From positions 1-64,000 of the IMG/VR virus record IMGVR_UViG_3300046821_000134: a DNA stretch of 64,000 bases; one strand, given 5' to 3'. The notes under the pieces were generated by a model. It saw only the letters and a list, made by a program, of their open reading frames with translations, was not told the DNA's origin and ran no database searches. Shown in pieces: positions 3,331 to 58,607 of the stretch. Each line of letters starts with the position of its first letter. Within the stretch, counting starts at the first letter, position 1. This stretch comes from a virus. The translations under genes and the position numbers were made by a program.

Positions 3331-3682
3331 TCATTGTGTTCCAAGCAGCACACAACATACGTTCAATCCTATCAAACTCTGGTGCGTCTGTAAGCTGCTC
3401 TGGAGAAATTCCAGCTTGTACACGGGGCCAAAGATCACCAACAATCTGCCCACCCAACTCCACTTCACAATGAATAGCATCCACAGCGTGTGGAAATACA
3501 AGGCGCATATTGCTAAACCTTACCCAAAAAAGAGGCGGCTTATCGTTACACGTACAATCATAGTTGCTATACTTTGGTATACGGCAAACGTAGTATTTGT
3601 ATTTGTAGTCTAGCGCAAGGGGATCATTATACACCTTCCACCCCTGCCCTACAAGAATGTCTTTCAATTGGTCGAATCTCAT
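3305..3682 (-). CDS. hypothetical protein
   Basis: AGGAG RBS; packed ORF. Confidence 0.7.
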   Translation of the reverse strand: MRFDQLKDILVGQGWKVYNDPLALDYKYKYYVCRIPKYSNYDCTCNDKPPLFWVRFSNMRLVFPHAVDAIHCEVELGGQIVGDLWPRVQAGISPEQLTDAPEFDRIERMLCAAWNTMNESYNVPI

Positions 3683-3691
3683 CTTTCTCTC

Positions 3692-3925
3692 CTAAAACAG
3701 CCAATAAGCAATCTTGTTCGTAATCGTCTTTGCTACATTTGCACCAAACACTTTACGAATCAGTTTGTACAGCTTGCCCCCTTTAGAAGCATTCTGCCTT
3801 CCCTCAAACGATGCCATTTGCCAAGCATCCTTCGATGCACGATAGCAAGTAGCCTTGAGAAAAGGAGTGGGGCAGTCGCCAAGCATGTTGCTTCCTTTTG
3901 TTTTCCACCATTCATTGTATTTCAT
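3692..3925 (-). CDS. hypothetical protein
   Basis: Packed ORF. Confidence 0.6.
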   Translation of the reverse strand: MKYNEWWKTKGSNMLGDCPTPFLKATCYRASKDAWQMASFEGRQNASKGGKLYKLIRKVFGANVAKTITNKIAYWLF

Positions 3926-6009: not shown

Positions 6010-7592
6010 TCATCCACACTTACTGGTGCCACAATTGGTGCATTTCTGGCAGCCTTCCTCGTACACCACCTTTCCCCCGCACTCTGAGCATGCAATACCT
6101 TTGGCTACCTCCCCGTTCTTGATGAACGTGCTCAAGTACTTACGAATAGCAAACAAGAAGCTACCAATGAACACATCTTCCACTTGCTCAAGGGTGGACA
6201 CTACGCTTGTCACCTTCACACCGTGCCGTAGGTTAAGGCTAATTGCTCTAGCAATCTTGCTTGGGTTATTGTCCCCAACAACTTTCTGCTCAATCTCCTG
6301 CACAAACTTCTCAGGAACTCCTTTTGTACGTGCCAGATTGAACAACAAGTCTACTGCGTTTTGTGTTGTCACCCCCTTCTCTGAGTGATTGGTGTGTACA
6401 AACAAGGCCACGGGTTTGCTGTTATCTTCCGTTAAGATGGCTGTAACGTACCACTTCTTACCTTCTGCTTTCAATCGCTTTACGACAGCAGGAAGGCTAT
6501 CAGGGAGCTTTACATCATCAAGGATAATTTCCTCATCTTCTTGTTGATCGTCCTTTGCCGATAGAACACTTGCCATAGTACCAGACCGATAAGTAGTGAA
6601 TCCCTTGATGAAGCCGGTGTTGTAGACATCAAGATACAAGTCCTTGAACTGTTCATAGCCATACTCATACGGCAGATTCACAGTTTTGCTACAAGCGGAG
6701 TCGGTGTATTTAGCAAACACCTTCAGGCTTTCAACGTGGTCAGAAACACCTAGTTGCGTTGTGGTTGCTGCCCACTCAGCACTTGCATCCCATTCTCCAC
6801 GCTCCTTCAGCCAGCGTACAGCGTAGTCCTCGCAAGGAACTTCTTTTAGTAGTCCTCGGTTCTTGTCTATCTTGTACGTCACACCATTAAATACACCCTT
6901 CAGGATTGGTTCATCCCCTTCCTTCGTCTCCTTGAAGATTTCTGTCTCATACCACTGCCCCTCAAACCAACGAGGACATGCGTGAGCAATCTCCTCCGGC
7001 ATCACTGGAACAATAACTGTACGGATGTATTCCGGCATGAAGACAGGTTCAATACCTCCAGACACAATGTTTGCAAGGATACTTGTATTTCCAGTTGGTT
7101 GCTGAGACAGCAAGCTTGAGTTACGGATGCCCGTTGTACGCAGCTTCTGCATGTAGTCCTCATTCAGTCCGAGATTCTGGATGAATGGGGCTTTAGCGTG
7201 TTCTTCAGGGTTACAATACTTGAACATCCCTTTCTCAATAGCCAAGTCAATAGATGCTTCGTAGGCTGCAATAGCGTAAGCCTTGGAAACTTCCTCACAC
7301 AGCCGGTTAGCCTCTTTAGAACCAAAGCGCACCTTGAGCATGAACAGGGCACTACCAACGCCCATCAAGCCAACTCCTACACGACGCTTATTGCGCATTG
7401 AATCAATGTACTGAGGCAGCGGGGCATTTGAGTATTCATTCACATTATCCAAGAACCTTACCATGTACTTCGTGTGCTTCTTGATGCCTTCGATATCGAA
7501 CTTACGAACGCCATTTTCCTCTGTCACAAATTGTGTGAGGTTGATACTACCCAAGCAGCATATACCGCCCGGGGCTAAAACCTGCTCTCCAC
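6010..7592 (-). CDS. nrdJ: class II (B12-dependent) ribonucleotide reductase, exon 2
   Basis: (C)GEQ...CCLGSINL, RRVGVGLMG, QPTGNTSILANIVSGGIEP, KGFTTYR, C-terminal CxxC...CxxC..SKC; no nrdB in window. Confidence 0.93.
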
Positions 7593-7867
7593 CGCTTATG
7601 TTACGGATACATCGTTTCCATGTACCCTCTGCATGTCCCCATGCAGGCCAGACTATATCACAACCCGCGAGGGGTTTCTCCCATTTCGAGGTCACTTGGC
7701 CCCTACGGCTTTCGCCTAGTCGTTGCACGTTCTCCACTGCCATTACTTTCGCATACAAACGGTACTCGTGTTTGTGGAGCTTCGCTCAGGATTGACTGTT
7801 CTAGTCTTCCCCTGAATTAGAGAGATTGTTCAAAAGCAATCGCTTGCTTAGGCCGCTAGTTTTGTTA
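7593..7867 (-). mobile_element. group I intron (275 nt, no ORF) splitting the catalytic Cys codon of nrdJ
   Basis: Removal joins AAC CCG T|GT GGA GAG CAG = NPCGEQ; 5' exon ends in U paired to G in P1 (CCGU|UA...UAGCGG); intron ends in G; P7 elements AACGACUA and GAUAUAGUC. Confidence 0.95.
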
Positions 7868-8813
7868 ACGGGTTTGTGGACTTTATATTTTCTTGGTACT
7901 TTGCAGGATTGTAGTAATTCGCCCGATCAAGGAACAACACTCCCGGTTCTGCACGATTGTATGTGGATTCCATCACAAGGTTCCACAGTTGAAGAACAGA
8001 AATTGTGTCATACACAACAACAGGATATCCTTTAGCTTTCCAATCCTTGATATTGCCATTCCATTTTGCTTTATACGACGGGTGCTCAGTATCCGGGAAC
8101 ACCAAATCCCATTTATCTAAGTCTGCAAACTTTACAGGGTCTTCTTTGAGTTTGTTCAATCGCTCCATAAACTCATCGGAGAAATTCACAGAGATGTTAA
8201 ACTTAGTTAGGCGCCCGTGTTGTTGCTTTGCAGTGATGAATTCTATGACATCCGGGTGCCAATCATCCAAGCAGCCCATCATGGCACCTTTGCGAATCTT
8301 ACCCTTGGCCTTGCTATTGCTCTTCGTTTTACCAGAGCCTGATGTGACAATCTCAGATGACTTATCAAATAACTCCATAAACTTCACAGCCCCCGGGGTA
8401 TCTACGCCGATCCCCTTGATATAAGCACCACGTGGGCGAATGTAAGAGAAGTTCTCGCCGTAGCCTCCTTCCGACGCCAGTGTTTTTGCCTGCCAGTCCA
8501 GCCGCTGCATAATGCCCTGCAGGGAGTCAATGTCGTCGACTGTGTCTGGTCCAACAAAACAGTTTGCAAGTGTTGTATTCTTGAAATCAGTGCCTGCGTT
8601 GCTATAGATACGCCCGCCTGTGGTAGATTTAAAATCTGCAAGCATGTCTCCAAACTTCTCAGTCCATTCTTGAACTTTCTCTGGTGTTTTCTCCACACTT
8701 GCAAGTGCTCTTGCTACACGAGACAGTGTATCATCGATAGTGACATCTTCATGAAACTTATACGTACTCTCCCAAACGTCTTTAGAAAAACTATCCTGAA
8801 ATTTTGTCATCAT
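7868..8813 (-). CDS. nrdJ: class II ribonucleotide reductase, exon 1
   Basis: GGRIYSNAG, NCFV, EGGYG.NFS.IRPRG, RKGAMM, HPDVIEFI, KFNISV, AEPGVLF, STNP. Confidence 0.93.
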
Positions 8814-8963
8814 TTCCCTTTTCTTGTTGTTGTAGGCCATCAATCAGCCCTTGTTGATAAATACGCTGCGAGACTTTGTACAAAGCTGTATCGAAGCTAT
8901 ACCTGACGTTCGATGTAGCAGCCATTTCCTCCGCAAACATCTTACGAATTTCATTCAAATCAA

Positions 8964-25133: not shown

Positions 25134-25694
25134 ATGAGTAAACTGAAAGAGATGTTGGAGTGTGTTCCTTCTGTATGGAAAACTGAAGCAGCCTTCTGGG
25201 CATGGGTAAAGGGAGGCATTAGGAAATCCCTGTGGAACAGACACCCGGTAAAAATTTCCTTCACACGAGAACGGAGATTGAAAATCCCCAATCCTAATCC
25301 AAGGGGAAAGGCAAAGGAAGTGTGGGGTGGTAGGTGCGAGATATGTGGAGATCTTTTTGTTGAATCGCAGCTTCAATGTGACCACAAGAGCGAAGAAACT
25401 GCACACTTGACAAAGCAAGAACACTTGCAGGGATGCTTCGAGAAGCTGTGTATTATCGTACCAGACGATTTACGATGGGTTTGTAAGGGATGCCACTCTA
25501 TTCACAGCTACTCGCAGAAATCTGGATTATCTTTTGAACAAGCAGCCCTTGAAAAGCAAGTGATATCCTTCAAGAAGAATTCAGCTACCAAGCAAAAGGA
25601 AATATTGACAGAACTTGGAATTGAGGGTATAATGCTTACAACATCTGAGAAGCGAGCAAATGCTTATCGTGAGCATCTTAACCGTGCAATTTGA
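25134..25694 (+). CDS. HNH endonuclease (possible resolvase)
   Basis: CEICG...QCDH...LRWVCKGCH. Confidence 0.82.
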   Translation: MSKLKEMLECVPSVWKTEAAFWAWVKGGIRKSLWNRHPVKISFTRERRLKIPNPNPRGKAKEVWGGRCEICGDLFVESQLQCDHKSEETAHLTKQEHLQGCFEKLCIIVPDDLRWVCKGCHSIHSYSQKSGLSFEQAALEKQVISFKKNSATKQKEILTELGIEGIMLTTSEKRANAYREHLNRAI

Positions 25695-41199: not shown

Positions 41200-41231
41200 T
41201 AAAAATAAAAGCTACGCCCGAAGGCGTAGCA
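41200..41231 (-). terminator. intrinsic terminator
   Basis: GCTACGCC-TTCG-GGCGTAGC-TTTTATTTTT. Confidence 0.85.
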
Positions 41232-41233
41232 TG

Positions 41234-41641
41234 TCAGCGTCTTGCTGATTTAGGAGCCTTACTTCCTGTATTAACAGGGTGAAGTTTTCTCCAAGCATCA
41301 AGATAAATTTCATCACAACTTGTGAAAACTTGTAGTTCCACTGTGTTCAAATGTTTTCCAAGACAAGCACAATATCCACTCATGTCTTGCCACGTCAAAG
41401 GAAGCGGGCTTCCTGACATTGAATCAAACCCCCTGCGCCTGCTTAATTCCAGAAACTCATTCCAATAGTATTTCAGGCTAATAGGAACGGATGCCTTTCT
41501 ATATGCAATCAACTCTGGAACGATCTTCTCTTGCTTCTCAAGGGCAAGCATGTGTGTGTATTCATTAACACCACTCTTGCCCTTTGGAAGCATCATTGTG
41601 AAGAAAGAATCTGCATAACTCAGGAGGCTTGACAGTTTTTT
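41234..41641 (-). CDS. tail assembly chaperone extension (gpT-like), reached by -1 frameshift
   Basis: The -1 frame is open from slippery A AAA AAC into the 41234..41596 ORF; W..F..L...R......PL.W motif. Confidence 0.8.
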   Translation of the reverse strand, partial: KKLSSLLSYADSFFTMMLPKGKSGVNEYTHMLALEKQEKIVPELIAYRKASVPISLKYYWNEFLELSRRRGFDSMSGSPLPLTWQDMSGYCACLGKHLNTVELQVFTSCDEIYLDAWRKLHPVNTGSKAPKSARR

Positions 41642-42045
41642 TCCAGCATCGTATCAACGTCCATCACTGCTGCAGCCACTTGCCCTGCCAGCCATTCATG
41701 CTTGATGAACAAATCATATGCTTTGTCTTGGGAGAACTTAACGTCCTTGCCACCAACCTTGACGCCTTCCCATCCTTCACAGCACATGGAAAGCATCTTG
41801 GCAGTATTCTTACGCTTCTCTTCTTCGTCGGGGGTGGTGTCTTCCTTCTTACATTTCTCAAGGTATGCGTTGAACACAGCAATACCCTTCTTGAATGCTT
41901 CAGAGCCAACCCCCTTCACCTTAATCTTCATATCTGAGGGGTCACCAGCTTTAGTGCCTTTAGCCTTATTGTCAGCCGGGTAAACAATAACAATGTCCAT
42001 CCCGTCTTCTACGGCCTTCTGAAAATCAAATTCGTCCAATTCCAT
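41620..42045 (-). CDS. tail assembly chaperone (gpG-like)
   Basis: Lies between tail tube and TMP; start MELDEF after AAGGA. Confidence 0.85.
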   Translation of the reverse strand: MELDEFDFQKAVEDGMDIVIVYPADNKAKGTKAGDPSDMKIKVKGVGSEAFKKGIAVFNAYLEKCKKEDTTPDEEEKRKNTAKMLSMCCEGWEGVKVGGKDVKFSQDKAYDLFIKHEWLAGQVAAAVMDVDTMLEKNCQAS

Positions 42046-50802: not shown

Positions 50803-50927
50803 CTATACCTCCTCGTTAAATTTAATGAGCATTCCTAATTCCTATACTAATATTATAACATAAGAACCTTGTTTTGTCAATGTTTTACAGCAAATATATT
50901 GACATATAAAGGCTCTTATGCTATTGG

Positions 50928-53465
50928 TTAAGACGGGATAGGCCCTTCTCTTGTTAAAGAGATGCCTGAGAGGGATACGTTAGGAGAGGATTGATACGCT
51001 TTAGCGAGAATCTTCAAGGCGCTTGATGTAGCATCAACCTCGTCATCGTGAATCTTTCGCATAGACTCAGGGGTGCCTTTGAACATCTCAAGCGTTTCAA
51101 GCCACTCATCATTCCATGCCCCGACCACGATCTTCACTTTACCTGCTTCTGCAAGCTGGCAGAATGGGAGGAACCTTTGTAGCTTACCGCTCCAGCCACT
51201 CATCTTATCAACTTTGACGATAAGCCCTTCCTCAGAGAGAACTGTTACCATGTGGTTTGCCACGTATTTACCTGCTGCACCAGCGTCCTGTGGTACAACA
51301 ATAGGAACGTGTAACCCATCTCTAGTTGCCTGAGTGATGATGCGCTCAAGCACTGCATGAGGCTTCGCATGGAACTTGACCATATCAATCACGTAATACG
51401 TCCCAAACCTGTCACGCCCCATTAGCATTCCAACCGTGGCATCAGGATTACGATTAACCTCAGACTTCTCTGTTGCTGCCAAGTCGTAGGCTCTAACAAG
51501 GTCGGTATCCACCGGTACCTGATCCATTGTTATCAGATCGCACCAAGACCGGTTAAACATGTTCTGTCCAACATCGATATTAAGCCATGAGCCATGCAGG
51601 TATTTCAGTTGGTTGCGCTTAGGCTGTGCAAGGAGGCTTGGAAGGTAGGTGTTGTTGCGTGGAGGGAGTAGGTAGGGGTTGTCGTAGACCGTAGAAGGGA
51701 TAAATCTGAATGACTTAGCAATAAAGAGCTTACCTTTTGGCACGTCGCGTATCTGTGCTGCAGTAAGCCCCTTCCCTCTAATCATGCCGCGTGGGGCGCC
51801 ATGAATCTCAAAACACTCCTCTTCTGAGTCTGCCCACAAAACCTTGCCATCAAGAACAACCATCCAGCGAACCTTGTCTTCTGTTCCCGGCTTTGGCACG
51901 CCATCTTCGTCTAGGCAGTAATCTACCCACTCCCTTAGAAAGCTATTATGATTTGGGTTAGCTGTTAGGATAACTTGTTCTTTGTATTTTGAGTGGGCAC
52001 TACGAACCCGAGACAACAAGAATAAAATTACATCCAAAGACCAATCATCGCCGGCTTCGTCCACGCATAAACGGCTAGCTTGGAGGCCCTGGAGGCTACC
52101 AAGCACACTTGCATCTGGGATACCAAGGAACTGTATCTCGGCCTGAGATGGGAACGTCCAGATCAGTCCAGTCTTATTAAAGTCACCGCCAAAAGGTTGG
52201 TAGAATTGTTTAGATTCATTCACAATGCCACCGGGGCGTGTAAGCTCAGGTCTTGATTTACGCGCAATCACGATGCGCTCATTTGGATCATCCAAGTATG
52301 CCAACATCTTCATCAAAATTGTTGACGTATTGTGTGTCACAATGTAGTTTGTTGTAATATACAGCTTTTCGTCTCCTGATATACTAATACAAGACGCTTC
52401 TCCTTTTCCTATTGGCTCTATGCACTCAACGCGTAACCCCACGTGTTTGGATATTGTTCTGTCTTTTTTCGCAGGAAGTCTGAAAAGACTCCCTTGGTTC
52501 ATTCCCCTCACATACAGTTTATAAACAATGGAGCAAATATGCTTTACACCATCTTTGACGTAACTTCCCTGCTTGGTGGAGAGCTTTGCAGTGTACCCAA
52601 GTGAGTGAAGGATTTCCTTAACCTGATGAGCCATTCGTTCGGAGGTTGTGTCATAATATACGTTACCTCTTTTACATACATAGCCGTCTGTATCAAACAA
52701 CCCCTGTAGTAAGTCAAAACGATTCTTGATAGAGCCTAACATATATTCTTCAGGAATGAATTTGGTCTGAGAAAGGGTTCCTCTCAGGCCAAGGCGTTCC
52801 ATTTCAGAAAATGTGCCAAGAAGAGTTTTTGTAACAGATGTTGGTCTGCCCTCATTAAGAGTAAAGGCGCCGGGAGTAATCCCTTCCCGCTTTAGTTCTT
52901 CCCACACAAATTCACTACTGTTAGTTACAGCCGGGCTTCCTGTTTTTGGTATATGGCCGTCACCTAGTATAACCCCCATCGCATAAGGGGAGATAACGTG
53001 TTCTTTGTGTTCGGAATGTTGTACTGGCTTTATAAGAGGTATGATCGGAAGTCTTTTACGAATTCCTTTTGTCCCTTCGTATTTAGAGGTTACTTTCAAC
53101 ATTTCAAGCGTATTTGTAATCTTACTGTTAACTTGCCCGTCACCTGCCTCATGCCATTTCCATAGATGTTCTCCACAACAGTCTATGATTCTTCCATCTT
53201 GAAAACGAACACGGTATAAGTCAACAACCCCCTGAGGAAATACGCCGGTAACAGTCTCAACCGTGTTATCAGGAGTAATTACTTTGTCGCCAACCTTAAT
53301 ATCTTCAATATTTACGAACCCGTTTACAGTTAAAACTTTCTCTCCATGTCGAAGAGCTTTCCCGCCGCCAGCACCACCACCCACAAGGATAATGTCTTCT
53401 TGTGCTTCTAGCATCATTCTTTGCTTTACTGACGCCGGGCCGAACACCTTATTCTCAGCCATCAC
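50928..53465 (-). CDS. terL: terminase large subunit with intein
   Basis: Walker A GGGAGGGK|T, Walker B CVDEA, TANP, DNPYL, RAYDLAA, HDDEVDA. Confidence 0.95.
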   Translation of the reverse strand: MMAENKVFGPASVKQRMMLEAQEDIILVGGGAGGGKALRHGEKVLTVNGFVNIEDIKVGDKVITPDNTVETVTGVFPQGVVDLYRVRFQDGRIIDCCGEHLWKWHEAGDGQVNSKITNTLEMLKVTSKYEGTKGIRKRLPIIPLIKPVQHSEHKEHVISPYAMGVILGDGHIPKTGSPAVTNSSEFVWEELKREGITPGAFTLNEGRPTSVTKTLLGTFSEMERLGLRGTLSQTKFIPEEYMLGSIKNRFDLLQGLFDTDGYVCKRGNVYYDTTSERMAHQVKEILHSLGYTAKLSTKQGSYVKDGVKHICSIVYKLYVRGMNQGSLFRLPAKKDRTISKHVGLRVECIEPIGKGEASCISISGDEKLYITTNYIVTHNTSTILMKMLAYLDDPNERIVIARKSRPELTRPGGIVNESKQFYQPFGGDFNKTGLIWTFPSQAEIQFLGIPDASVLGSLQGLQASRLCVDEAGDDWSLDVILFLLSRVRSAHSKYKEQVILTANPNHNSFLREWVDYCLDEDGVPKPGTEDKVRWMVVLDGKVLWADSEEECFEIHGAPRGMIRGKGLTAAQIRDVPKGKLFIAKSFRFIPSTVYDNPYLLPPRNNTYLPSLLAQPKRNQLKYLHGSWLNIDVGQNMFNRSWCDLITMDQVPVDTDLVRAYDLAATEKSEVNRNPDATVGMLMGRDRFGTYYVIDMVKFHAKPHAVLERIITQATRDGLHVPIVVPQDAGAAGKYVANHMVTVLSEEGLIVKVDKMSGWSGKLQRFLPFCQLAEAGKVKIVVGAWNDEWLETLEMFKGTPESMRKIHDDEVDATSSALKILAKAYQSSPNVSLSGISLTREGPIPS
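52329..53357 (-). mobile_element. 343-aa LAGLIDADG intein, class 3 signature
   Basis: Starts with Ala (ALRHGEKV); block B EHLW; block F ASCISI; ends IVTHN|T; LAGLIDADG motifs MGVILGDG and LQGLFDTDG. Confidence 0.92.
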
Positions 53466-53698
53466 CCTTCCTCCAAATCAAACTTAAAATACATCCCCTT
53501 ATTGCTACTATTCACAGCAATGATGGGCAACTTCCTCGCATTGGCAATCAATGCCAATAGCTCAATAAATTCCTTAGAACTCTTCCCCACAACATCTACG
53601 CAATCCAATGAGAGAGAATCTAGCTCGCCGTCCTCATCAAGATAGGCCCAACGCAGGGAGTATTTCCCACGATAAGAAACTACACGAATGTTCTTCAC
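53462..53698 (-). CDS. hypothetical protein
   Basis: AAGGA RBS; overlaps terL start. Confidence 0.65.
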   Translation of the reverse strand: MKNIRVVSYRGKYSLRWAYLDEDGELDSLSLDCVDVVGKSSKEFIELLALIANARKLPIIAVNSSNKGMYFKFDLEEG

Positions 53699-53725
53699 TT
53701 ACATTTCCTTTACGAATAAATGGAA

Positions 53726-53759
53726 CAAAAATAACGCCCAAAGGATTTCTCCTTGGGCG
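53726..53759 (-). terminator. intrinsic terminator closing the large ncRNA
   Basis: CGCCCAAGGA-GAAA-TCCTTTGGGCG-TTATTTTTG. Confidence 0.85.
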
Positions 53760-54294
53760 CATTGAAACACTATATCGGAAAGGATAAGTGAGAGGAGAAA
53801 CTTAGAGATTATCTGTCCCAACGCATCTCACGCCGGGAGGGTGTTTGCTTCAACACCTAAGCTCCACTGTAAGCAACAGCAGAGGAATACGCGTAACTCT
53901 TTAGGAGAAGGGTTTTACGCATTGGTTGTGGGTGACCGACTCGTCAGCGGGGTGCTTCCCCAGACAGGCGTATAGTCGATTAGCTCAGTCTCGCATACAC
54001 GCAGTGCGAAACATAGTTACAGCGTCCTGTAACGATCCTCTTTTACCCACAAGGAAGTAGTCTATCCGAGGATGTCTTAACACTTGTGGGCTAGGACTTC
54101 CTGTTCTGACTGCTTCCTTGTAGGTGCTGGTTACTAATCCAGCGATAGGCTTTCGGGCTACCAGCTCCACTGTCCCGCCTGTGTCTTATTACGCATTTCA
54201 GGTCTTTGCGTACAACATCCCCGGAGGTCAAAGGAGGTAACAAATCCCTCCGGGGAACACATCACAATGTGTCTTTTCTCATCTCTCACTGTAT
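53727..54294 (-). ncRNA. candidate large ornate ncRNA (~570 nt)
   Basis: Consensus promoter and terminator; no credible ORF; 5' and 3' ends pair; many long helices. Confidence 0.7.
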
Positions 54295-54300
54295 ATAGAC

Positions 54301-54329
54301 ATTATATACCCGGGATGTGTCTTTGTCAA
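54301..54329 (-). promoter_or_regulatory. perfect-consensus sigma70 promoter
   Basis: TTGACA-17-TATAAT facing a non-coding region. Confidence 0.9.
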
Positions 54330-54337
54330 GCTATTTA

Positions 54338-54739
54338 TTAAACATTTTTCAGATGGTCAATGTCCAACACACCATCTCCTGTGGTAGCATCTTCTCCGTC
54401 AATGTTTTGAATAACACTTGGAGAGAATGTTACACGAGGCTTCCCATCTTCCTCTTCTGGAGTTATTGTCTTCATGCCAATACGGACAAGCTGTTTCTCT
54501 TGCAGTTCTGCTCTGACATTGGCAATACTAGCTGCAAGGTTATTCTTTGCACTCCTATCAATATTCTCTGACTGCAACGTAAGCACCTTAGTAATCAAAT
54601 CAGCCTTTATCTTGATATCAGCCTCAGGGTCTTGCAGGATTGCAATAGCAGCATTATAGGCCATCTTGGAGAGCTTATCAAGGTTCTTGATCAGCTTTTT
54701 CTGCTCTGCTGTGATGGCTTTTGCGTCAATTTCCTTCAT
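54338..54739 (-). CDS. putative terminase small subunit
   Basis: Helical 133-aa protein upstream of terL; call is positional only. Confidence 0.45.
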   Translation of the reverse strand: MKEIDAKAITAEQKKLIKNLDKLSKMAYNAAIAILQDPEADIKIKADLITKVLTLQSENIDRSAKNNLAASIANVRAELQEKQLVRIGMKTITPEEEDGKPRVTFSPSVIQNIDGEDATTGDGVLDIDHLKNV

Positions 54740-56296: not shown

Positions 56297-57907
56297 TTAC
56301 ACAAGAGGTATTAGCTCCTGACACAATGTTGATAAATGATTCTGAAGAAGAATAACATCGTAGTTTTTATCAGTGTCCATTGCACAGTAGGTGGTCATTC
56401 TACCTCCTGTAGCAGCAGTGCCTGATTGGATGAAATCTGTTGGGGTGTATGAAGCCATAACCCTGTTCTGCACATCGTACCTGAATATCTGGTTCAATGC
56501 CCCAGATGCGTATATGTTGATGTAGAACATACGCCCTTCATTATCGTTTGGCGCAAGGCTTCCACAAGAACCTGTCGTGAGTGCTACAGAGCCGTCGTAG
56601 ACAATCGCACTTGTCCAAGTACCAGTGATAGACCCCGCTATATCAAATACGTCAATACTGGCAGACGATCCCCGGAAGAAGTGCTGGAAGGAGTGTCGTG
56701 AGTTTCTATCAACATCCGGCTGTATTGCATAAGAACTTGCCCACATACCACCCACGGCGTTAGCTGCACCAGCAGCTGCAAAGTAGGTGGTGCTCCACGA
56801 GTTTGCAGGGATGTTGTTTGTCCCGTTGTTGATCGTAGCGTCCATGTAGTTGTAGGTGTAAACGGTAGTAGTGCCGCTTGTTCTCAACAGTATCAGATTA
56901 GGAAGCTCAATAACATATTTAGCAGAGGATGATGGTGTGGTTGTCCATGCAGTGCCAAGTGTATAGACAGGGCTTGGGCCTGCAGTATGGCTCGCAATCA
57001 CCCTACGTTGTCCTACAGCAGCCGGTGTAACAGTGTCCTGAACAATTCGTATCTGGAAGTTACGATACTCATTTGCAGCTACAACAGCATCCCCGAGGGT
57101 GGCCTGCCCTGTGAGAGTACTTGCTGCTGCTGCGGTAGCAACTAAAGCATAGCGGCTAACATGCCCTGCGTCATACAGGAAAGCCCCCTTAATCATGCCC
57201 TCACCGGGCTTCATGTTGTACGGGGTGTATTGCTCATCAAGAACAAGCACTGCAGAGTCTGTTGCAACAGTTGCCGGGAGTCCTGTTGTGCTAAGGCCCG
57301 TGGAAAGAAAGTTGCTGGCAATCTCCAAAGAGCGCCATATGTTAGCTGCAGTGGTTCCAGCCCCAAGCATAAACACTCTACCAGCTACAATCTCATACCT
57401 TGCACCAGTGGCAGGGGTAAACGAGAAAGGGGAATGAATACGAATAGCAGGGGTTGTTCCTCCTGTGTTACCTGTAATGTATCTCTCTTCTGTTTTACCT
57501 GCAACAGTGTCAATGATTCTGATTTTAAAGCCGTAATCACCTGACCCACCACGATTGGCAAGCATATTCACACCAACTGCGGCAGGAAGGGCTGTGGTGA
57601 GTGTCACCTTGTCCGTTGTAGCCCCTGCTGCGATTGTACCAACAAGTCCAAATGATGGCACAAAATCCATTGCTGCTCCAGCGCCAAAGGTTCCAGCAAG
57701 AGCGGGAGATTGCACATAGTTCCAGCTCTTTGTTACGATGTTAAAACGATTCAGCACTGTTGCAGACACAAGCTGATACACCAGAGGGTGCCTCGAGATG
57801 TCTGAACGTTCATCAGAGCATAAACACATCCCTGCAGCATGTGCGTTGGGGGCAGGGGCTACTTGAACCCATTCGTTTCTGTCCAAGCATTTTTTAAACA
57901 AATTCAA
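56297..57907 (-). CDS. large beta-rich virion/fibre-like protein
   Basis: TTG start after GAGGAG; T/A/G-rich; two internal repeats (IRI....G..R.I...T.G). Confidence 0.7.
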   Translation of the reverse strand: MNLFKKCLDRNEWVQVAPAPNAHAAGMCLCSDERSDISRHPLVYQLVSATVLNRFNIVTKSWNYVQSPALAGTFGAGAAMDFVPSFGLVGTIAAGATTDKVTLTTALPAAVGVNMLANRGGSGDYGFKIRIIDTVAGKTEERYITGNTGGTTPAIRIHSPFSFTPATGARYEIVAGRVFMLGAGTTAANIWRSLEIASNFLSTGLSTTGLPATVATDSAVLVLDEQYTPYNMKPGEGMIKGAFLYDAGHVSRYALVATAAAASTLTGQATLGDAVVAANEYRNFQIRIVQDTVTPAAVGQRRVIASHTAGPSPVYTLGTAWTTTPSSSAKYVIELPNLILLRTSGTTTVYTYNYMDATINNGTNNIPANSWSTTYFAAAGAANAVGGMWASSYAIQPDVDRNSRHSFQHFFRGSSASIDVFDIAGSITGTWTSAIVYDGSVALTTGSCGSLAPNDNEGRMFYINIYASGALNQIFRYDVQNRVMASYTPTDFIQSGTAATGGRMTTYCAMDTDKNYDVILLQNHLSTLCQELIPLV

Positions 57908-58607
57908 GGTTACTCTCCTCTAACTTTTCAATGCGTTCAAAAACGTATCCATGAATGGATTTATCAGCCTTTCTGAATGCATAATATATACTCATCAGGT
58001 TTATGTTGAGGCTAATTGCCGCGTGTTTTACAGATTCGTAGAGCGTATTGTTTGTCAAACAAAGAACCTTGCATGTCGACCGGTTAGCTGCCATCTTGGA
58101 TTTACTCTCGTCGGAGTGTTTTTTACCTCTGTTCGCATCCCCTATCCTGCGCTTGTGTTCCTCAGACAACTTTACCCCTGTGTGTACCTCGCTCAACTTC
58201 TTTCTGGTTTCATCGCTGGCCTTTTTGCCTAAGTTTGCTTGCCTAAGCCGCTCTCGTGTCTCGTCGGAGATAACCCGCTCCTTAACGGCCTTACTTATTT
58301 TAGCTTTCGCCTCTTCACTCATTGAAACGCCAAGCCTGCTGCCCGCTACGCTACAAATATTATACTCAGGTTTTAGTGTGTCTATATAGAATTGCTCAAC
58401 TCTTATGAGGTCTTCCTCTTGCACATATTCCAAAACATTAAATACAAAATTTTCTATGCCGTATTTTCTCATGGCACACTGCATGTGAGGGTTACTTCTC
58501 CTCCCGCTAAAGTGATTAGCCATACGTGTTTTTAAATCCTTAGAACTTCCGACATATCTCTTATTGTTGATTAGGTTCACAATCTCGTAAACTCCACAAT
58601 TTCCCAT
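57894..58607 (-). CDS. free-standing GIY-YIG homing endonuclease with NUMOD3 repeats
   Basis: GVYEI.N..N.K.YVGSS....R...H, EQ..I....PEYN; repeated S.E.K.KIS/LS. Confidence 0.92.
   Translation of the reverse strand: MGNCGVYEIVNLINNKRYVGSSKDLKTRMANHFSGRRSNPHMQCAMRKYGIENFVFNVLEYVQEEDLIRVEQFYIDTLKPEYNICSVAGSRLGVSMSEEAKAKISKAVKERVISDETRERLRQANLGKKASDETRKKLSEVHTGVKLSEEHKRRIGDANRGKKHSDESKSKMAANRSTCKVLCLTNNTLYESVKHAAISLNINLMSIYYAFRKADKSIHGYVFERIEKLEESNLEFV

Follow-up and report, generated by a model that had tools for sequence, protein, structure and literature searches.

What does a phage encode in the segment directly upstream of its packaging genes, where no evident protein-coding gene is found? 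The question arises for positions 53727-54329 (minus strand) of a 64,000-nt stretch of viral DNA, hereafter the window, for which an initial annotation made from the sequence proposed an independently transcribed, highly structured non-coding RNA of about 570 nt. Our analysis confirms that this interval is a real gene for a folded non-coding RNA of ~570 nt, belonging to an uncatalogued family. The description of the RNA as non-coding, structured, self-contained and undescribed is supported by its boundaries, by covariation, by the lack of a shared ORF and by the lack of an Rfam match. The notion of the entire ~570 nt as the unit needs revision, given that the signature of the family is a 3′ core of ~130 nt together with a few architectural elements.

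Genomic setting of the RNA gene

The window belongs to a phage record of 80,152 bp in IMG/VR that carries direct terminal repeats. Its large terminase (TerL) is only ~33-35% identical to the TerLs of cultured phages, and the phage is therefore without a close cultured relative. The genes upstream of the RNA gene, all on the same strand, encode an endolysin, a spanin and a 133-aa ORF, and a 78-aa ORF lies immediately downstream (Table 1). The RNA had been placed between candidate small and large terminase genes. Its position next to TerL is borne out by the Terminase_6C domain of the latter, but the small terminase is a guess. The 133-aa ORF has no match in family searches; its structure model consists of two short helices, one long helix and a disordered tail, a layout that might suit a small terminase, but the sole terminase match in a fold search with the model is not significant. 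The 78-aa ORF adjoins the RNA and is conserved in all lineages described below; it too has no family match, and the fold search with its model returned nothing significant.

The TerL gene of the window phage contains an intein (Hint and LAGLIDADG domains) that sits right after the P-loop lysine. In relatives, a group I intron is found a few codons upstream of this site, in the same P-loop motif, and the region is a homing hot spot across the window phage and its relatives. Further mobile elements in the window are a free-standing GIY-YIG/NUMOD3 homing endonuclease gene at 57894-58607 (−) and a group I intron (RF00028, 64 bits) at 7629-7877 (−), between the ORFs 6010-7758 and 7848-8843.

Table 1. 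Positions of the RNA gene, its parts and its neighbours (window numbering unless a contig is named)
Feature	Position	Strand	Remark
133-aa ORF, possible small terminase	54338-54739	−	Upstream of the RNA; context only
Sigma-70 consensus promoter of the RNA gene	54301-54329	−	TTGACA-17-TATAAT, 12/12 matches
Terminal helix P1, 5′ strand	54275-54290	−	Pairs with 53800-53787 in the MFE fold
H1 hairpin	54256-54273	−	L004: other sequence, same hairpin, three pairs changed on both sides
H2 hairpin	54219-54255	−	Loop CCUCCUUU at 54237-54230, copies the 16S rRNA 3′ tail (anti-Shine-Dalgarno)
H3 hairpin	54190-54212	−	Identical in window and L004; comparable hairpin at the same position in L005, by eye
11-nt direct repeat	54173-54163; 53870-53860	−	Two copies
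Long arm, 80 nt	54045-54124	−	Closed by ACAAG/CUUGUG
Variable linker domain	53941-54044	−	Local hairpins; not alignable between lineages, length differs in each
Conserved 3′ core, ~130 nt	53810-53940	−	Four hairpins; model R1, pair counts, identity
Ha	53920-53891	−	First core hairpin, loop CCUUCUCC
Hb	53884-53862	−	Core hairpin
Hc	53857-53840	−	Core hairpin
Hd	53837-53817	−	Core hairpin
Cargo slot, empty (14 nt)	53801-53814	−	Between the last core hairpin and the terminator region
Terminal helix P1, 3′ strand	53787-53800	−	Conserved in L003, L004 and L061
Pyrimidine-rich conserved tail and intrinsic terminator	53724-53786	−	Stem 53760-53734, then T-run
78-aa ORF	53462-53698	−	Downstream of the RNA, overlaps TerL start; context
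Large terminase with intein	50928-53465	−	Terminase_6C, Hint and LAGLIDADG domains
117-aa cargo ORF	L003 176-529; L061 6033-6386
TerL group I introns	L003 942-1163; L004 2618-2853; L061 6787-7013		Rfam matches
TerL group I intron, L063	~3500-3700	−	Read by eye

Relatives of the locus

A unit of promoter, RNA and terminator was found at the same place in three further lineages (L004, L005 and L063) and in the near-identical variants L003 and L061; the independent lineages are hence four, namely the window, L004, L005 and L063. L003 and L004 were reached via the 78-aa protein, L005 and L063 via exact-pattern scans of IMG/VR, and L061, found by a further scan, is a 44.9-kb contig binned in a Uliginosibacterium metagenome-assembled genome (MAG). 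The contigs stem from wastewater and freshwater. The gene order is the same in all of them: a 133-aa-type ORF (where the contig reaches it), the RNA unit, a 78-aa-type ORF and the terminase. A blastn search (distant mode) of GenBank phages with the RNA gave no match, and IMG/VR protein searches with the TerL, 78-aa and 133-aa families gave one useless fragment or nothing. All 46 loci retrieved with a 16-mer pattern (L006-L051) were chance matches and were rejected on context; L062, a chance match inside a coding region, was also discarded. Positions 1-9 of L003 resemble a sequencing-adapter remnant, and the 5′ end of that contig is not phage sequence.

Boundaries of the transcription unit

At one end of the RNA gene stands the perfect promoter that had been described for it, and at the other the intrinsic terminator, a 10-bp G+C-rich hairpin followed by a T-run. 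Wherever the contig of a relative includes the ends of the unit, promoter and terminator are retained. Both promoter hexamers are retained in L004 and L061, with a different spacer, and L005 carries TTGACT-17-TAGAAT; the contig of L063 is cut at the −35 element and keeps the −10 element and a terminator of its own. The tail and terminator are nearly invariant in L003, L004 and L061, and the terminators of L005 and L063, likewise their own, occupy the same place as that of the window. As had been stated, the interval holds no credible ORF, the longest in any frame being 61 aa; nor do the RNA regions of the relatives have an ORF in common, and at the protein level the region resists alignment across lineages.

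The RNA gene is not alone in having a perfect promoter. The window has 13 sites with at most one mismatch to the sigma-70 consensus, against 0.39 expected, and three of these are perfect; examples of near-consensus sites are 25605-25633 (+) and 50852-50880 (−). The window phage thus appears, from its promoters, to rely on host RNA polymerase throughout. Judged by its consensus promoter, the RNA would be strongly expressed, as had been proposed, and abundant.

Fold of the window RNA

The 568-nt transcript has a minimum free energy (MFE) of −209.7 kcal/mol (z = −7.2), and none of 100 shuffled sequences folds as well. The opposite strand is equally stable (z = −7.4), so that folding energy cannot pick the strand, which is fixed instead by the G-U pairs that conserved helices contain and by the promoter and terminator. 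Among 112 windows of the same size taken from the phage, the RNA region has the lowest MFE, but it ranks second after correction for GC content, and fold energy alone is therefore not decisive. The sole other 568-nt window with an equally unusual GC-corrected energy (residual z = −2.5) lies between tail genes, at 41231-41798 (−).

The long helix, the long-range helix and the local hairpins read from the sequence by the initial annotation are all present in the MFE fold, and the 11-nt direct repeat was found where it had been reported. Both copies of the repeat can pair with the 5′ strand of the core hairpin Hb, which suggests an alternative pairing; L004 has the same G-to-A change in both copies. 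The helix said to close the whole molecule, P1, forms in the MFE fold of the window RNA but is not a family-wide trait. It is confined to the window's own sub-group, which consists of the window, L004 (where a G-C pair has become G-U), L061 and, by its 3′ strand only, the 5′-truncated L003. L005 and L063 are without P1 because their 5′ leader is too short, only ~10 nt preceding H2.

Conservation and covariation of the 3′ core

A strongly conserved part of the RNA is a core of four hairpins, Ha to Hd. In five sequences, 99% of its pair cells are paired, and no lineage deviates in the loop of Ha, CCUUCUCC. These five sequences, without L063, gave a covariance model (R1) that detects the much more diverged L063 with 47 bits (E = 2.6e-11). 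With L063 included, 98.3% of the cells are paired and 9 of the 28 pairs show double changes; none of 500 shuffled controls reaches these values, and slid controls reach 36-53%. The alignment was fitted to the model, and with only four independent lineages known the covariation counts are small. A comparison of the syntenic intervals of related phages had been suggested as a check, and it yields compensatory changes not only in the core but also in H1 and H2.

Several conserved core pairs are G-U, and these fit the minus strand only. The window and L005 share 79% identity in the core, compared with 51-55% (DNA) and 31-35% (protein) for the flanking ORFs. Conserved beyond its neighbouring genes and marked by compensatory changes, the core is under selection as RNA.

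The 5′ region and its anti-Shine-Dalgarno-like loop

Upstream of the core, the picture is one of shared architecture. The 5′ ~350 nt are at near-random identity between distant lineages (44-49%) and cannot be aligned, while 170 nt at the 5′ end are conserved between the window and L004. All four lineages have H2 followed by the long arm, in that order; the arm measures 80-104 nt and keeps the same closing base around unrelated interiors, and a comparison of the window with L063 shows covariation in the stem of H2. At its 3′ end, the arm might also pair with the linker just before the core, a pairing that shows one compensatory change in L005 and competes with the base of the arm.

The loop motif of H2, CCUCCUUU, is common to the window, L005 and L063 and is not present in L004. 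It is predicted to be unpaired with a probability of 0.89-0.99, and it occurs a single time on the sense strand of the minus-strand genes in the whole window. The 16S rRNA tail of the MAG that carries the near-identical phage contig L061 ends in ...CACCUCCUUUCU; with one neighbouring base, the motif equals nine bases of this tail. A switch formed by the anti-Shine-Dalgarno-like loops and an arm of the terminator was considered and rejected, since the complementarity present in the window and L004 is missing from L005 and L063.

L061 provides a natural rearrangement of the 5′ region. Here a TnpB element replaces RNA positions ~32-352, and the promoter, the first 31 nt, the core, an ORF cargo (see below) and the terminator are retained. 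Since the core is kept where the 5′ two-thirds are replaced, the 5′ part is dispensable or at least separable in one or more wild genomes. The TnpB gene encodes an OrfB_IS605 protein with Cas12f1-like TNB and HTH domains and brings along its own guide-RNA-like segment (HgcC match). The sequence right after the 3′ end of the element is the start of the conserved core region, and so the guide may target intact alleles. The element itself (IS605 OrfB, L061 4558-5894) takes the place of ~320 nt, and its junctions are unlike those of a simple insertion.

A cargo slot and the link to tRNAs

One position, after core hairpin Hd and ahead of the terminator region, is filled differently among the phages. 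It is empty in the window phage. In L005, it holds genes for tRNA-Thr, tRNA-Leu and tRNA-Tyr; in L004, a tRNA-Met(CAT)-like element that ends in CCA and is called at a relaxed threshold only; in L063, a tRNA-Ile(GAU)-like cloverleaf without CCA; and in L003 and L061, an ORF of 117 aa that has a strong ribosome-binding site and matches no family. This ribosome-binding site and the H2 loop motif of the window RNA are exact complements of each other.

The link to tRNAs is visible in the relatives only, not from the sequence of the window, and no tRNA gene was found in the whole window phage. Even without an intact tRNA cargo, the scaffold is maintained, with compensatory changes, in the window and L004; hence, it is not merely a tRNA leader.

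Absence of the RNA from catalogued families

A scan of the region against Rfam 15, as had been recommended, returned nothing at gathering thresholds, nor at E ≤ 10. The statement that the RNA is neither ROOL nor GOLLD was examined with both models directly: ROOL (RF03087, threshold 99.1 bits) and GOLLD (RF02032, threshold 150 bits) have no match at E ≤ 10 in the window phage record or in that of L005. The exclusion of tmRNA, RNase P and introns also stands. Neither ARAGORN nor Rfam finds a tRNA or tmRNA in the window RNA (at the 70% threshold, ARAGORN gives only implausible calls), and Rfam finds no RNase P RNA in the region. An intron was rejected on two counts: no group I or group II model matches the region, in a scan that detects true group I introns elsewhere, and the ORFs that flank the RNA are both complete, each with its own stop or start. 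Finally, no TnpB or IscB nuclease gene adjoins the window RNA, and a guide (omega) RNA signal was not detected in it.

Proposed explanation

The locus is conserved, covaries, is non-coding, has a cargo slot and is absent from Rfam. The best explanation, to which we lean without great assurance, is a stable, multi-domain non-coding RNA of ~570 nt that represents an uncatalogued family and serves as an accessory RNA of the GOLLD/ROOL kind. Host RNA polymerase would transcribe it from its own consensus promoter and stop at its own terminator. The order of parts, common to all members of the family, is a 5′ hairpin, a lineage-specific region, the long arm, the variable linker, the 3′ core, the cargo slot and the terminator; in the window phage, with the slot empty, the two ends of the RNA would pair and thereby close the molecule. 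By analogy with GOLLD and ROOL, we picture an abundant, rigid scaffold that is made together with phage tRNAs.

As to what such a scaffold might do, the mechanism we favour is an effect on the translation apparatus in trans, in which the exposed, pyrimidine-rich, anti-Shine-Dalgarno-like loops would bind purine-rich sequences of the Shine-Dalgarno type, or proteins that recognize the 16S tail. This mechanism we put forward tentatively, as one possibility among several. The points against the proposed explanation as a whole are the small number of lineages (four), the near-random 5′ ~350 nt, the restriction of P1 to one sub-group, the replacement of the 5′ part in L061, the rank of the GC-corrected energy (second of 112), the lack of the 16S-tail motif in L004 and the lack of tRNAs in the window phage.

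Alternative explanations

The main rival holds that the functional unit is the ~130-nt four-hairpin core only, acting as a small RNA or as a processing or stability element for the cargo, with the 5′ ~350 nt as co-transcribed, lineage-specific leaders in a modular island. The low identity of the 5′ half between distant lineages is what one would expect of such an island, as are the persistence of core and cargo in L061 without the 5′ two-thirds and the position of the core, which is always directly 5′ of the cargo. However, each lineage has just one promoter and one terminator, all four show H2 followed by the long arm, P1 joins both ends of the RNA in the window's sub-group, and without its cargo the scaffold keeps to a size of about 500-620 nt. 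We regard this rival as possible but unlikely.

A second alternative assigns the locus a role in cis, in which promoter, leader and terminator set the transcription into the 78-aa ORF and TerL, comparable to lambda PR′-6S-tR′ or to RNA-based antitermination. The unit does lie directly upstream of these genes on the same strand, and the promoter scan found no strong promoter between the RNA terminator (53734) and the start of TerL, the next perfect one being located only before the portal gene. Nevertheless, no lineage has lost the strong terminator, and the unit encloses tRNAs or an ORF; near-consensus promoters are plentiful in the phage; the analysis identified no antiterminator gene; and the conservation of the core is far above the needs of a spacer. 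As the principal function of the RNA, a leader or attenuator is thus quite improbable. A secondary cis role is nonetheless probable within the accessory-RNA explanation: the RNA terminator would gate transcription into the terminase genes, and read-through probably supplies a low-level transcript for the 78-aa ORF and TerL as well.

It is very improbable that the locus is a functionless relic, in decay, of a tRNA array or mobile element (an intron, an IS end or an omega-RNA). The locus evidently attracts mobile DNA, with TnpB inside it in L061 and group I introns and an intein next door, and the tRNA-like elements of L004 and L063 are degenerate; but the compensatory changes, the conservation of the core above that of neighbouring genes and the purifying selection speak against decay, as do the intact promoter and terminator and the lack of any tRNA, tmRNA, intron or omega-RNA signal in the window RNA. 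A missed protein-coding gene is a negligible prospect, for the region offers nothing beyond short chance ORFs, the longest of which falls in a part that relatives replace, and no frame is conserved.

Returning to the accessory RNA, its most far-reaching form would join GOLLD and ROOL as a third class among the large ornate phage RNAs: a rigid, possibly self-assembling scaffold that carries tRNAs as covalent cargo and, through its mimics of the 16S 3′ tail, engages Shine-Dalgarno sequences, 30S subunits or 16S-tail-binding proteins during infection. We offer this version as a speculation, doubtful in its full extent. The two invariant or near-invariant pyrimidine-rich loops provide a concrete and mutable hypothesis that would connect the RNA with translation.

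Comparison with known systems

RNAIII of Staphylococcus aureus is a regulatory RNA of ~500 nt with multiple hairpins, closed by long-range helices; it also encodes a peptide, and its pyrimidine-rich hairpin loops pair with the Shine-Dalgarno regions of target mRNAs. The window RNA is similar in size, hairpins, long-range closure and pyrimidine-rich loops, without homology, and a pairing with targets is hypothetical in its case. The tRNA operon of phage T4 yields stable, structured non-tRNA species that are co-transcribed with the tRNAs and released by processing. These are much smaller than the window RNA, and T4 belongs to another phage group. In the lambda PR′-6S RNA-tR′ arrangement, a constitutive promoter produces a short terminated RNA, with the late genes behind the terminator, and the protein Q is needed. 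The lambda leader is shorter than the window RNA and unstructured by comparison, and no Q-like protein was found in the window phage.

GOLLD and ROOL are phage-borne RNAs that lie near tRNAs or contain them, and their function is open; in GOLLD the 3′ region is conserved and the 5′ region varies; ROOL averages 581 nt, has many junctions, occurs near tRNAs in phages and prophages and is non-essential in one studied strain (bioRxiv 10.1101/2024.12.08.627333; PMC5737381). The pattern of conservation in the new family recalls that of GOLLD (RF02032), a large RNA of phages and prophages with tRNAs in or next to it, as a resemblance and not as homology. The window RNA is shorter, at ~570 nt without cargo, and the tRNAs of GOLLD reside in the linker between domains, unlike those of the new family, which are 3′ of the core. 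ROOL is similar in size (about 580 nt versus 568 nt for the window RNA) and shares the many junctions, the phage context and the association with tRNAs: L005, L004 and L063 carry tRNAs or tRNA-like elements inside the unit, although the window phage has none. The conserved motifs differ from those of ROOL, and the ROOL model does not match. A further mark of GOLLD and ROOL is the homo-oligomeric, RNA-only nanocage.

The new family goes beyond the known ones in having a cargo slot with natural empty, tRNA and ORF states, a natural truncation and the pair of pyrimidine-rich loops. Its sequence and structure do not fit GOLLD or ROOL, but its genomic logic fits them closely: the RNA has a strong promoter to itself, its core is conserved and its periphery varies, and the transcript includes tRNAs. 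That an unrelated family follows this logic suggests convergent solutions to one problem.
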